From Sulfolobales archaeon (GTDB lineage Archaea; Thermoproteota; Thermoprotei_A; Sulfolobales; AG1), in NCBI GenBank assembly GCA_038867615.1, contig JAWBYA010000002.1:256001-320000 (forward strand): a stretch of 64,000 nt of DNA, given 5' to 3'. The notes under the pieces are model-generated. The model did not search any database. It had not been told where the DNA came from and saw only the letters and a list, made by a program, of their open reading frames with translations. Position 1 is the first letter of the stretch. Each line of letters opens with the position of its first letter. Positions 1,657 to 44,383 of this stretch are shown piece by piece. A program made the translations under genes and the position numbers.

Positions 1657-3519
1657 TTGAGGCTACTGGCAATAGCTCTTCTCCTCCTCATACTCTCAGC
1701 GACACAGCTATCATTGCTAAGCGCTAGTACTAATACCAATACTACTAATTGTGTCAGAATAGATGTCCCAGCAGTGGAGGGTCAGAGTGGGAAGGGCAGT
1801 GTTGTTAGCGTAGCTGTATGTATAAACCCAGGCGGTAATAGCCTGAGGATCTATGGTACAGATAAGATCGAGGCCGACACGCTCATATCGATCATAACAG
1901 CATACATCATAGCCCAGCTACTATCAAACAAACCCCCAAGCAGCTATGATATAGATATCAGCTTCGAGAAAAACGTACAAGACGTATCAGGTCCATCTGC
2001 AGGAGCTATTATGACGTTAGCACTCTACAGCCTGCTAAACAACAGTGAATACAACGGCCTGTCTGGCACAGGTGCTATAAATCTAGACGGCAGTATAGAG
2101 GCTGTTGGCGGTATACCGCAGAAGCTCTCCGCTCTAAGAACTTCTGGGCATAAAGAGGTATTCTTACCAATAGCTAATTATATTCAGTACAGACAGCTAA
2201 TAGAATCACAATTCAGGGATCTAAAAGTGCTCCCGGTAAGCAGTATTGTAGATCTTCTCAATACGCCGCCGCCCCGCTGGTCCCTAGAGGCTGGGGAGGA
2301 GTATGTAATATATGTTATATCAAACGTATCAAGAGATCATGAAGCCGTTATGAAGGATCTTCTGGAAAGGCTTTCGAACATTTATATAAGCAGGGTATCT
2401 GATACAGGTTCCACGGAATATAGATTAGTAATGAGTATAGTGGATAAGGTTAGAAGAAACCCCCCGAGCAATGGGTATGCTTTGATAAACCTATACTACC
2501 TATCACTGGTTCAGCTTATCCAAGCTATAGTGGATAGAGATCTCAACGGGTATGGTAGGATCCTGATCCAGCGGGCTGTTGAGGAGTATAACAAATCGAT
2601 AGACAGGCTTGCCACGGTCTTCTCAGATATACCCAGATCTATGGATCTCGACAGGTTCCTACTATACCTACTGATCTTTGAGAGAGCTGTAAACCTGGCC
2701 AGCTATGATGGTGTGGTTAAGGCTTACACAAGTAGCGGTGATACAGGATCTATAGCCAGGGTAGCGGGCACGCTATATGGAAGAGCCCTCTCAATAGATT
2801 ACTGGCTAGATGTGCTGGGTAACATGACGCATAGCACAGGAGCAACTGTGGAACTGGATAGTGCCTATGGTGTGTCTAGAAACATCCTCCGGATTCTCGG
2901 TGTCTCCAGAATATCTGATACTGCTGTTTCGAACCTAACTAAGATCATAGGCCCTAGAGTAGATCTTGCTGCCCTAGAGACCCTGAACACCGTTTATACT
3001 CTATACTCGTATCTACAGAACTACTCATACACAGTGAGAGGGTCGACATTATCCCAGATTATTAGTCGGGGAGCGGGGACTGGGGCGAGCTCCAACGCCT
3101 TAGATCAGCTGAAAACAAGCGGCTATATAACAAACATGCTCGGAATCATGCATAGCGGCATGGCTAGGAGCATCTATAGCTTCCCACTGTGGGTTCTCAA
3201 CAACACAGATCCACAGTCACAAGATACAGGAATCCTTGTCAGCTCCTTACTATCAACAAGCGCCTCCGCTCTGTCTCTCAACATGCTCTACATGATCCTC
3301 TCTAAAAGGGTTAGCACACCACTCAGTCTAGAGCTTAGCGGTGAGGCTAAGAACGTTCTACAAGGCCCCGCAGAAAGGAGATATCCCGCTGATATCCCAA
3401 TAATAGAGCTGGAGAGACTATCACAACTCCTAACCTTAGCATCTATAGCCATCTCTACTATAACATTATTAATATACATTGCTTTATCCAGAAGCGGTAA
3501 ACCAAACCCAAAGCCGTAG
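1657..3519 (+). CDS. Secreted, membrane-anchored S16 (Lon C-domain) serine protease
   Basis: Signal peptide, SGPSAG catalytic Ser, VGGIPQK Lys, C-terminal TM helix; the stop codon lies inside repeat copy A. Confidence 0.8.
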   Translation: MRLLAIALLLLILSATQLSLLSASTNTNTTNCVRIDVPAVEGQSGKGSVVSVAVCINPGGNSLRIYGTDKIEADTLISIITAYIIAQLLSNKPPSSYDIDISFEKNVQDVSGPSAGAIMTLALYSLLNNSEYNGLSGTGAINLDGSIEAVGGIPQKLSALRTSGHKEVFLPIANYIQYRQLIESQFRDLKVLPVSSIVDLLNTPPPRWSLEAGEEYVIYVISNVSRDHEAVMKDLLERLSNIYISRVSDTGSTEYRLVMSIVDKVRRNPPSNGYALINLYYLSLVQLIQAIVDRDLNGYGRILIQRAVEEYNKSIDRLATVFSDIPRSMDLDRFLLYLLIFERAVNLASYDGVVKAYTSSGDTGSIARVAGTLYGRALSIDYWLDVLGNMTHSTGATVELDSAYGVSRNILRILGVSRISDTAVSNLTKIIGPRVDLAALETLNTVYTLYSYLQNYSYTVRGSTLSQIISRGAGTGASSNALDQLKTSGYITNMLGIMHSGMARSIYSFPLWVLNNTDPQSQDTGILVSSLLSTSASALSLNMLYMILSKRVSTPLSLELSGEAKNVLQGPAERRYPADIPIIELERLSQLLTLASIAISTITLLIYIALSRSGKPNPKP

Positions 3520-17200: not shown

Positions 17201-17435
17201 TTATTCACTTCGACAACTGTCTAAAGCATTCTGGATGCATTCATACGCACTTTCTATCTTTGAGAACCTCTCTAGAAGCTGCCTCACGACATCTATACAT
17301 CTAAGCCTGTTGATAGCCATATACCTTATTATAGAGAGAAGATACGCCCTACCCTCTGATGTTAAAACCCCCCTCTTATCCAGGTAATCCCGCGTCTCAG
17401 CGATGATAGATAGATCTCTGAGTAGCTTCTCATAC
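17201..17435 (-). CDS. Hypothetical helical protein; start probably downstream of the ORF-track start
   Basis: ORF 17201-17548 overlaps the tRNA half at its 5' end; a purine-rich RBS-like stretch near 17445-17460 suggests a start near 17435 (approximate). Confidence 0.45.
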
Positions 17436-17489
17436 AAAACACACAGATCCCTCTCTCCCCGATCCCTGTGAAACCCTTGCCCCCAGCTA

Positions 17490-17505
17490 GTTAAACCTTT
17501 AAATC
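17490..17505 (+). promoter_or_regulatory. BRE/TATA-like promoter of the tRNA-Gln 5' half
   Basis: GTTAAACCTTTAAATC, TATA-like core about 25 nt upstream of tRNA position 1. Confidence 0.55.
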
Positions 17506-17526
17506 CTGATAAAGAATTATTATTGA

Positions 17527-17564
17527 AGCCGGGTCGTCTAGCGGCCAAGGATGCGGGGCTCTGG
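17527..17564 (+). tRNA. tRNA-Gln(CUG) 5' half only (positions 1-37); candidate split tRNA
   Basis: AGCCGGG TC GTCT AGCGGCCAA GGAT G CGGGG CT CTG G: A1 start, intact D arm, anticodon CTG at 17561-17563; no T arm or acceptor 3' strand follows. Confidence 0.8.
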
Positions 17565-17580
17565 CCCTCCGCGCCGCCCC

Positions 17581-17633
17581 CTGATGAGAAGAGGGTCTTC
17601 TGATCATGTGATGTGTGCTGGAACTCCTGATCC
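17581..17633 (+). ncRNA. C/D-box guide sRNA immediately after the tRNA half
   Basis: TGATGA (17582-87), 12 nt, CTGA (17600-03), TGATGT (17609-14), 12 nt, CTGA (17627-30): canonical archaeal double-guide geometry. Confidence 0.8.
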
Positions 17634-17653
17634 GGTTTATAGAAGATCCCTAA

Positions 17654-18292
17654 CTACCTATAACCGATCCTCTCGAGCATGCTCGATATAGCCCCCAAAG
17701 ACCTTTCAGCATATAGGCATGAGGGATCCTTATCACCGCATCCCCTCGATAGATGCTCCCTCAACACCCTCAGCTCCTCGAGAAGCGATTCCAAGTACCA
17801 CTTATTGCCAACATACCCCTCCCCCACGAGCTTCGGGCTACCCTCTGCAAAACCTTCTGGGTAGTACATGTCCCTAACTAGGTAGTAGCCGCTCACTATC
17901 ATGAGAGATCCTAGCCTTGTAGCCCCGGGATGGATCCCTCTGCTTAGTAGTGAGACAGTTTCATGATCCCTTACATATGGGATCATAACCCTCAGACCCT
18001 CACCAAAGATCCCCAGCAAATGCGGGAGGATCTCTCCTAAGGCGTTATAGAAATTCTCTGAGAGATCTGTTTCGTTAAACTCGACCCATGGTCTGTAGTT
18101 CTCCCTGCCAGTAAATACTACAAACCCTATCTCAAGACCCTTGATCCTGGATGTAACCTTATAAGCACCCCTGATCCTCCAACCCCTGCACTCAATGATC
18201 GTTGTTCCAGGGATTCTCCCAAGTTCCTGGCATATGCCTGCCTGGCCCACACGTAACCCTAGCAATATATATATCCTCGCAGGATTTAACAT
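17654..18292 (-). CDS. DUF1122 family protein
   Basis: FTGRENYRPWVE and RDMYYPEGFAEGSPKL motifs. Confidence 0.75.
   Translation of the reverse strand: MLNPARIYILLGLRVGQAGICQELGRIPGTTIIECRGWRIRGAYKVTSRIKGLEIGFVVFTGRENYRPWVEFNETDLSENFYNALGEILPHLLGIFGEGLRVMIPYVRDHETVSLLSRGIHPGATRLGSLMIVSGYYLVRDMYYPEGFAEGSPKLVGEGYVGNKWYLESLLEELRVLREHLSRGCGDKDPSCLYAERSLGAISSMLERIGYR

Positions 18293-44309: not shown

Positions 44310-44383
<74 letters not shown>

Follow-up and report, generated by a model that had tools for sequence, protein, structure and literature searches.

A probable 5′-half gene for a trans-spliced tRNA-Gln(CUG), followed by a box C/D sRNA, in a Sulfolobales archaeon

Can the first half of a tRNA gene, standing undecayed behind its own TATA-like box with nothing of the second half nearby, be part of a working gene? 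The question is raised by a locus in a 64-kb stretch of DNA from a Sulfolobales archaeon (G000:C2:256001-320000, hereafter the window, whose own numbering is used for the locus). An earlier note on the window had described positions 1-37 of a tRNA-Gln(CUG) behind a TATA-like box, followed by a G + C-rich tail, and had proposed that they form one half of a split tRNA. Split tRNA genes are rare and are central to the debate over whether tRNAs arose from two half-molecules or were split later from introns. The half and its box are both present, and we find that the locus is very probably the 5′-half gene of a trans-spliced tRNA-Gln(CUG). Its parts are:

17498-17504, plus strand: TATA box TTTAAAT, read from the sequence, its midpoint 26 nt 5′ of A1 of the tRNA
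17527-17564, plus strand: 5′ exon of tRNA-Gln(CUG), positions 1-37, AGCCGGGTCGTCTAGCGGCCAAGGATGCGGGGCTCTGG
17561-17563, plus strand: anticodon CTG, within the 5′ exon
17565-17580, plus strand: trailer CCCTCCGCGCCGCCCC, the 5′ part of the putative trans-intron

The exon contains the acceptor 5′ strand, the D arm, the 5′ strand of the anticodon stem and the loop CU-CUG-G through G37. All of its 38 nt recur unchanged at the start of intact tRNA-Gln(CUG) genes in related genomes, which excludes a chance match. The TTTAAAT box, which recurs with small changes in four other genomes of the same genus, would set the transcription start of the half gene. When the window was scanned with ARAGORN and Rfam (at the gathering threshold), the sole match was a tRNA-Met at 44310-44383. 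Silence at 17527-17564 is what a half gene should give; the same scan yielded no matching 3′ half within the 64 kb, in agreement with the earlier note.

The missing part is on another contig of this assembly (2.22 Mb in 28 contigs; completeness 94.4%, contamination 0.27%). A whole-genome pattern search for a T arm followed by CCCGGCT gave two matches, tRNA-Cys and an unannotated half gene on contig C5, and a blastn-short search of the genome found each half once at full length, together with an additional 5′ half, of tRNA-Gln(UUG), on contig C9:

G000:C5:102579-102637: shared leader plus 3′ half, unannotated (pattern search, blastn-short)
G000:C9:3025-3079, outside the window: 5′ half of tRNA-Gln(UUG), exon (3025-3062) plus trailer (blastn-short)

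The C5 piece reads GGGGCGGCGCG-CCGG-GGAG-AA-C-CCCCG-TGAC-CGGGG-TTCGAAT-CCCCG-CCCGGCT-A-CCA, so that its exon runs from C38 through the T arm to CCCGGCT, A and CCA. It has a TATA-like box of its own, AATAAAAG, at C5:102549-102556, ~27 nt 5′ of the first G of the leader. The 11 nt of the leader, GGGGCGGCGCG, are the exact complement of window positions 17570-17580, and on both strands of the genome this 11-mer occurs only twice, in the leader and as the reverse complement of the CUG tail. The UUG half matches the CUG half at 32/34 positions (blastn-short), differing at positions 9, 20 and 34 (anticodon TTG), and is without a small RNA of the C/D type behind its tail. This tail, CCAGGCTGCGCCGCCCC, is also complementary to the C5 leader, over 10 nt, indicating that one 3′ half serves both Gln isoacceptors from three pieces on three contigs (CUG half, C2; UUG half, C9; 3′ half, C5). 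A 3′ half elsewhere in the genome, with a complementary GC-rich leader, a short splice-motif segment and an exon of the form ...GGTTCGAATCC...CCCGGCT, is what the earlier note had foretold. Its detail was nearly right: the leader is GGGGCGGCGCGCCGG where GGGGCGGCGCGGAGG was predicted, with 11 of the 15 predicted leader bases correct, and the splice segment is GGAG-AA where AGAG-NN was predicted, one base being different. The CUG half itself was described correctly in the note, which missed the UUG 5′ half and the small RNA fused to the CUG tail.

When the pieces are drawn together, the sequences can form a bulge-helix-bulge (BHB) motif of the 3-4-3 type, that is, helix-bulge-helix-bulge-helix, with cuts at 37/38. 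The central 4-bp helix pairs C32-U33-C34-U35 with GGAG of the leader; the 5′ bulge is G36-G37^C, its third base being C17565, and the 3′ bulge is A-A^C38. Outside the bulges the CUG pair has a 2-bp helix (CC, 17566-67), a 2x2 internal loop (TC, 17568-69) and an 11-bp helix between CGCGCCGCCCC at 17570-17580 and the leader at G000:C5:102579-102589. For the UUG pair, RNAcofold gives the BHB as the minimum free energy fold (-74.6 kcal/mol). The strongest structural argument for the predicted motif is its homology to a cis intron: at 37/38, locus L009 of the relative G034 carries an intron of 22 nt whose termini, CCCTCC...GGGGAGAA, agree with those found here. Moreover, when the exons were joined in silico ARAGORN called both tRNA-Gln(ctg) and tRNA-Gln(ttg), and the joined CUG product is identical at 76/76 positions to the intact gene of the relative G038.

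Does the genome also hold an intact gene? None of the 44 tRNAs called by ARAGORN across the genome, with introns allowed, is a tRNA-Gln, and neither is any of the 44 matches to the Rfam tRNA model (Infernal, E <= 1). A blastn-short search of the genome with either half gave no further full-length copy. Intact Gln genes were likewise found in none of the eight genomes, this one included, of the two genera g1 and g3. The blastn result and the relatives carry more weight here than the silence of the finders. The enzymes that trans-splicing would use are encoded as well. The genome has two matches to the tRNA intron endonuclease family tRNA_int_endo (PF01974), scoring 112 and 31.3 bits, whose open frames encode 198 and 162 amino acids; this is consistent with a catalytic (alpha) and a structural (beta) subunit, the two genes being at G000:C1:316186-316440 and C2:116528-116761. 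One RtcB match (576.9 bits) is at C5:117134-118438.

The comparison with relatives covered 40 related genomes besides this one. Five of the six genomes of genus g1, to which this one belongs, have the CUG half together with its tail and the sRNA; the sixth, G004, has a completeness of 81%. In the same genus, 6/6 genomes hold the UUG half and 5/6 the 3′ half with its leader. The CUG exon is invariant (38/38) in the five genomes of g1 that hold it, and each of their tails has an exact complement of 11-13 nt to the leader. Both genomes of g3 have all three pieces, built on another helix (tail CCGCCACCGCC, leader GGCGGTGGCGG). Genus g2 (6 genomes) is mixed. The UUG gene is intact or intron-bearing in five, orphan CUG 5′ halves occur in three (G008, G010 and G012) and orphan 3′ halves with leaders in five; the search of G011 gave two UUG genes, both intact, and yielded neither a CUG gene or half nor any split piece. 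The helix of G010 is unrelated (TCACAACTGCCCTCCC with GGGAGGGCAGTTGTGA), while G012 and G008 differ by a compensatory pair (CCGTCTC/GAGACGG versus CCGCCTC/GAGGCGG).

Across 14 genomes, all 24 cognate tail/leader pairs (7 of them from outside the family) have 10-16 nt of exact complement, on helices made of several unrelated sequences. By contrast, 263 of 336 non-cognate combinations have a complement of 7 nt or less, the longer matches being confined to groups with a common helix. On average the duplex has an energy of -36.7 kcal/mol in cognate pairs (n=17) and of -26.4 kcal/mol in non-cognate ones (n=109). This comparison replaced a weaker control with shuffled leaders, which is considered below. 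Tails and leaders thus change together while the exon stays the same, which argues for selection on the pairing.

The DNA 3′ of the tail is not featureless, which corrects the picture given by the earlier note: a box C/D small RNA (sRNA) begins immediately behind it. Its parts are:

17581-17630, plus strand: box C/D sRNA, with boxes and 12-nt guides read in the sequence
17581-17587, plus strand: C box, (C)TGATGA
17588-17599, plus strand: D′ guide, GAAGAGGGTCTT, 12 nt
17600-17603, plus strand: D′ box, CTGA
17609-17614, plus strand: C′ box, TGATGT, 5 nt 3′ of the D′ box
17615-17626, plus strand: D guide, GTGCTGGAACTC, 12 nt
17627-17630, plus strand: D box, CTGA

The boxes and guides are conserved across g1, g2 and g3; the D′-C′ spacer and the 3′ flank diverge. 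All 12 positions of the D guide can pair (2 G:U) with GAGUUCCGGCGC, a stretch of 23S rRNA in both G010 and G001, and 11/12 can pair with the partial large-subunit (LSU) rRNA of this genome, at about position 2055-2066 (interpolated) of the Rfam archaeal LSU model. In archaeal C/D sRNAs the methylated base is that paired with the fifth nucleotide upstream of box D. Applied here, this rule points to the second U of AAGUU in the 23S rRNA (AAGUUCCGGCGC) as the predicted methylation site. Against the 44 tRNAs called by ARAGORN, a set that does not include the Gln halves, the best pairing of either guide is 8 contiguous pairs, and a by-eye comparison of both guides with the tRNA-Gln exons gave no match.

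How is this sRNA made? In g1 only 0-3 nt (0 nt here) separate the G + C-only tail from the C box, leaving no room for a promoter of its own. In the window a 5′ half only stands directly before the sRNA; in at least seven loci elsewhere (L057, L064, L086, L131, L153, L104 and L122), several of them labelled Ignisphaera or Desulfurococcaceae, the orthologous sRNA follows a complete tRNA-Gln, intact or intron-bearing, at 10-35 nt. The sRNA motif lies downstream of tRNA-Gln in at least nine loci of the wider survey described below. Since the sRNA follows intact tRNA-Gln in these other lineages, it probably depends on the half-gene promoter here. At the three g2 loci compared (L040 in G010, L043 in G011 and L045 in G012) it lies ~70 nt upstream on the opposite strand, across a shared AT-rich intergenic region; the linkage between tRNA-Gln and sRNA thus survives a change of orientation. 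Co-transcription of the sRNA with the half gene, followed by its release by the endonuclease, is in our judgement somewhat better than an even prospect.

We infer trans-splicing itself from the anatomy of the pieces, their complementarity and covariation, the intact gene that was sought and not found, and the presence of the enzymes. In the model that we propose, two tRNAs-Gln would be encoded by three genes at separate sites, and every one of these genes would have a TATA box of its own. The trailer of either 5′ half would anneal to the leader through a G + C helix of 10-11 bp, the acceptor and anticodon stems would then form and create the helix-bulge-helix-bulge-helix at 37/38, and an endonuclease of the (alpha-beta)2 type would cut both bulges, after which RtcB would join the exons into mature tRNA-Gln. 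The sRNA would be transcribed from the half-gene promoter. The same cut by the endonuclease would free it together with the trailer, and after trimming it would enter a ribonucleoprotein that guides methylation of 23S rRNA. A stronger version, in which the sRNA has lost any promoter of its own, is made only as the 3′ extension of the CUG half and requires an annealed 3′ half for its release by EndA, so that sRNA biogenesis is coupled to trans-splicing and the locus is a frozen intermediate, is put forward tentatively, its chances falling a little below even. In that version RtcB could also join leader to trailer, giving the sRNA a G + C hairpin cap.

Several results weigh against these readings. 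For the CUG pair, RNAcofold gives the BHB -71.8 kcal/mol with the anticodon stem enforced and an alternative fold, in which the tail mimics the 3′ strand of the anticodon stem, -73.2 kcal/mol, which is 1.4 kcal/mol better; ViennaRNA also places the BHB region in a slightly different register. In the control with shuffled leaders the observed energies (-35.8 / -35.0) were below the shuffle means (-28.2 / -26.7), while the shuffle minimum reached -41.7, the control being weak because the strands are G + C-rich. ARAGORN and Infernal also report no His, Asp, Pro(GGG) or Pro(CGG) tRNA in this genome, and their silence on Gln alone is therefore weak evidence. As to the sRNA, its Rfam matches are below the gathering thresholds (sR20, 28.4 bits, E 5e-4, gathering 44; sR3, 20.9 bits, gathering 41), the Rfam C/D families being lineage-specific. 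Its D′ guide has no target in the 16S and 23S rRNAs of G010 and G001, the partial rRNAs of this genome or the 44 ARAGORN-called tRNAs, the best pairing being 10/12 with 2 G:U or 8 contiguous pairs. In g3 an AT-rich spacer of ~35 nt precedes the sRNA and holds a TATA-like ATATATTAA ~23 nt 5′ of the C box, making independent transcription possible there. RNA data have the same bearing. The raw-read metatranscriptome X21, of which ~3% of the run was read, held 0 reads from the locus, and X24 gave 0 contigs for it. Among RNA-library contigs (X20), one of 218 nt at a depth of 14.2 covers 17529-17631 in a relative’s sequence variant and spans exon, tail and sRNA; it runs 115 nt past the D box and is for that reason indistinguishable from DNA carry-over. 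A second X20 contig, of 74 nt, reads as uninterrupted Gln(CUG); it is not assignable, because a DNA run from a similar community (X5) holds the same form, and the X20 contigs cannot separate a spliced tRNA of this organism from intact genes of other community members.

Could the half be a pseudogene or an att remnant, with an intact tRNA-Gln(CUG) lying in the ~5.6% of the genome that is unassembled? tRNA genes are common integration targets, and the draft (28 contigs, 94.4% complete) has rRNA genes truncated at contig ends; these last two facts also count against our reading, as they leave strict room for an unassembled intact Gln gene. A remnant should not, however, be undecayed and identical at 38/38 positions to functional orthologues, nor should tail and leader, which both vary from genus to genus, still match each other. 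The genes on either side of the half include no integrase or mobile element, the 3′ half with its own TATA box would be an orphan as well, and the eight genomes of g1 and g3 would all have to hide an intact gene. We regard this explanation as very improbable. An assembly artefact at ~17565, joining a tRNA gene to unrelated sequence, has only the draft state of the genome in its favour, and its probability is next to nil: an independent metagenome contig from DNA run X5 (record 12) is identical to 17538-17677 with 0 differences and four other g1 assemblies have the same junction, which together exclude misassembly at 17565, a point that the earlier note had raised; in g3 the junction recurs with a different tail. 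It is also conceivable that the CUG half survives solely to provide the sRNA with a promoter and leader module, production of tRNA-Gln(CUG) having ceased and tRNA-Gln(UUG) reading both codons. The gene set of G011, with two UUG genes and no CUG gene or half found, indicates that life without Gln(CUG) may be possible in the family, but neither the invariance of the CUG exon in g1 nor the 11-13 nt of exact complement that its tail keeps would be needed for a mere promoter module, and we consider this idea highly unlikely.

A different doubt concerns the sRNA rather than the tRNA: the halves may be trans-spliced while the sRNA is an independent neighbour with its own start, not released by splicing. 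Many archaeal C/D sRNAs are expressed without recognisable promoters (Randau 2012, PMC3491384), and the TATA-like box of g3 and the opposite-strand sRNA of g2, with its own AT-rich upstream region, fit such independence. In g1, on the other hand, a TATA box 26 nt upstream of the sRNA would fall inside the tRNA exon, where none is seen, and the position of the sRNA 10-35 nt behind complete tRNA-Gln in at least seven loci of other lineages is the layout of a dicistronic precursor. An independent sRNA is thus unlikely, albeit a serious contender. The reading that we prefer remains a trans-spliced tRNA-Gln(CUG) whose 5′ half carries the sRNA on its transcript.

To place the locus among its relatives, species-representative genomes were scanned with exact patterns, giving at least 119 tRNA-Gln loci. 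Among CUG loci, at least 21 are intact, at least 32 have an intron and at least 9 have no 3′ exon in the flank (usually 160 nt); the corresponding numbers for UUG loci are at least 15, at least 28 and at least 14, two of these 14 orphans (L062 and L081) being evidently misses of the regular expression. Several genomes show how such splits may look at different stages. In G021 the halves are 267 kb apart and share a long helix (longest exact complement, 13 nt), while both genes of its congener G031 are intact by coordinates. In G029 a gap of 756 nt separates the halves, and the 3′ one is preceded by a TATA-like box; its congener G019 has a 37-nt cis intron. In G028 the UUG halves are 156 nt apart, and in both G023 and G033 one 3′ half with a purine-rich leader is common to two 5′ halves. 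At least five families of the order thus have a split tRNA-Gln, and the splitting events look recent and independent. Separately, at L115, in a complete, named Ignicoccus genome, a CUG 5′ half runs into CCCGCCGCTGCCCGGCTCG..., and the next 160 nt hold no 3′ exon, so that a cultured organism with a closed genome seems to carry a split tRNA-Gln too.

The relatives therefore present a graded series, from genes with no intron, through a short cis intron with the same boundaries and halves 156 or 756 nt apart, to halves on different contigs or 267 kb apart, which supports a late, intron-derived origin of the splits. For the locus in the window we infer, as the simplest history, three steps. The ancestor would have been a tRNA-Gln gene interrupted by an intron at 37/38, with the sRNA behind it; next, the locus would have given up its 3′ exon together with the distal intron half, either by loss or by relocation; and the 5′ exon, trailer and sRNA would have been left under one promoter.

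The closest known counterpart is the split tRNA-Glu(UUC)/Glu(CUC) of Nanoarchaeum equitans, in which two 5′ halves are joined at 37/38 to one 3′ half (Randau et al. 2005, as presented in PMC4033280, PMC4390854 and PMC3218864). Both systems have synonymous 5′ halves with different anticodons and a single 3′ half, a G + C-rich complementary trailer and leader, and a BHB at 37/38; the separate promoters of N. equitans would have their counterpart in the TATA-like boxes here. They differ in isotype, which is Gln here, and in the fusion of one 5′ half to a C/D sRNA; the host here, a crenarchaeon of Desulfurococcales type, is free-living and has a genome of 2.2 Mb, whereas N. equitans is a reduced symbiont. 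N. equitans also has a trans-spliced tRNA-Gln(UUG), but this is joined at 32/33 (PMC3218864) rather than 37/38, concerns a single isoacceptor and belongs to an unrelated lineage, indicating an independent event. Other known split tRNAs include those for iMet, His and Lys in N. equitans, Gly, Glu and Ala in Caldivirga maquilingensis, Asp in A. pernix and T. aggregans, and Lys in Staphylothermus; a 2014 review counted 29 split tRNA genes in seven genomes (PMC4033280). Like the split tRNAs of the same broad order, such as A. pernix Asp, the splits described here appear to be recent, sporadic and intron-derived, and some of the same-order halves are ~100-150 nt apart (compare the 156 nt of G028 and 756 nt of G029). 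Those tRNAs are of other isotypes, however, and share no half. The literature that we covered holds no report of a split tRNA-Gln in Desulfurococcales, though the supplements of Chan et al. 2011 and GtRNAdb might list such genes.

The sRNA has partial precedents. C/D sRNAs are encoded in introns of tRNA-Trp in Euryarchaeota and of tRNA-Met in N. equitans, and N. equitans has a dicistronic tRNA-Val-sRNA8 (Randau 2012, PMC3491384), whose layout is that of the relatives with the sRNA behind a whole tRNA-Gln. In these cases, as we propose here, the transcript of a tRNA carries a C/D sRNA, which a nuclease of tRNA processing then releases. Here, however, the carrier is a 5′ half only, and the guides have no match to the host tRNA; furthermore, the sRNA lies beyond the trailer helix of the putative trans-intron, so RNase Z cannot free it. 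For the long intervening sequence of A. pernix Asp, a C/D sRNA was sought by its authors and none was found. The papers covered, which exclude supplements and GtRNAdb, contain no report of a C/D sRNA attached to a tRNA half. As a separate observation, tRNA-Trp of the present genome (G000:C1:317891-318026) has a 59-nt intron at 37/38 and lies next to the EndA gene (C1:316186-316440); no C or D boxes are found in this intron, unlike in euryarchaeal tRNA-Trp introns.

What the locus contributes is a family-wide split of tRNA-Gln, with a single 3′ half on which both isoacceptors rely. If the reading is true, the sRNA fusion ties the production of an rRNA-modification guide to tRNA splicing, and the same intron, broken independently in at least five families, offers a natural series for the origin of split tRNAs. 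There is also a practical side: standard finders report no tRNA-Gln for these genomes, and this silence might wrongly be taken to mean that the genome is incomplete or that decoding capacity is missing.

The neighbours of the half gene are housekeeping genes (S19e, UbiA, DUF1122 and SfsA). An open reading frame (ORF) of 115 amino acids with a TTG start (window 17201-17548, minus strand) overlaps the CUG half; it has no Pfam match and is probably not a gene, but an annotation pipeline might accept it and so hide the tRNA half. A scanner for sigma-70 promoters and bacterial terminators gave one minus-strand match and no terminator at the locus, which is uninformative for an archaeon.

As tRNAs for His, Asp, Pro(GGG), Pro(CGG) and Gln all go unreported by the two finders, more disrupted tRNA genes are likely in this genome. 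Outside the window, at G000:C2:58285-58350 (plus strand), an Asp/Glu-like 5′ fragment, GCCGCGGTAGTATAGCCCGG...GCGGGCC, is followed by a G + C-rich tail, and at G000:C2:139499-139560 (minus strand) an orphan 3′ end, GCCCG-TGAC-T arm-CCGCGGC-G-CCA, stands behind a TATA-like box. The two may belong to a further split or multi-piece tRNA (Asp or His); no complementarity between this fragment and this 3′ end has been established. Orphan T-arm/acceptor ends, CCGGG-TTCAAAT-CCCGG-CCGCCGC-A, also occur on the minus strand at G000:C3:267207-267231 and C10:78-102, and a simple pattern search of the genome gave no 5′ partner for them. Finally, the 16S match at G001:C14:15775-18122 spans ~2.35 kb for a model of 1478 positions, which suggests an rRNA intron or insertion in that relative.

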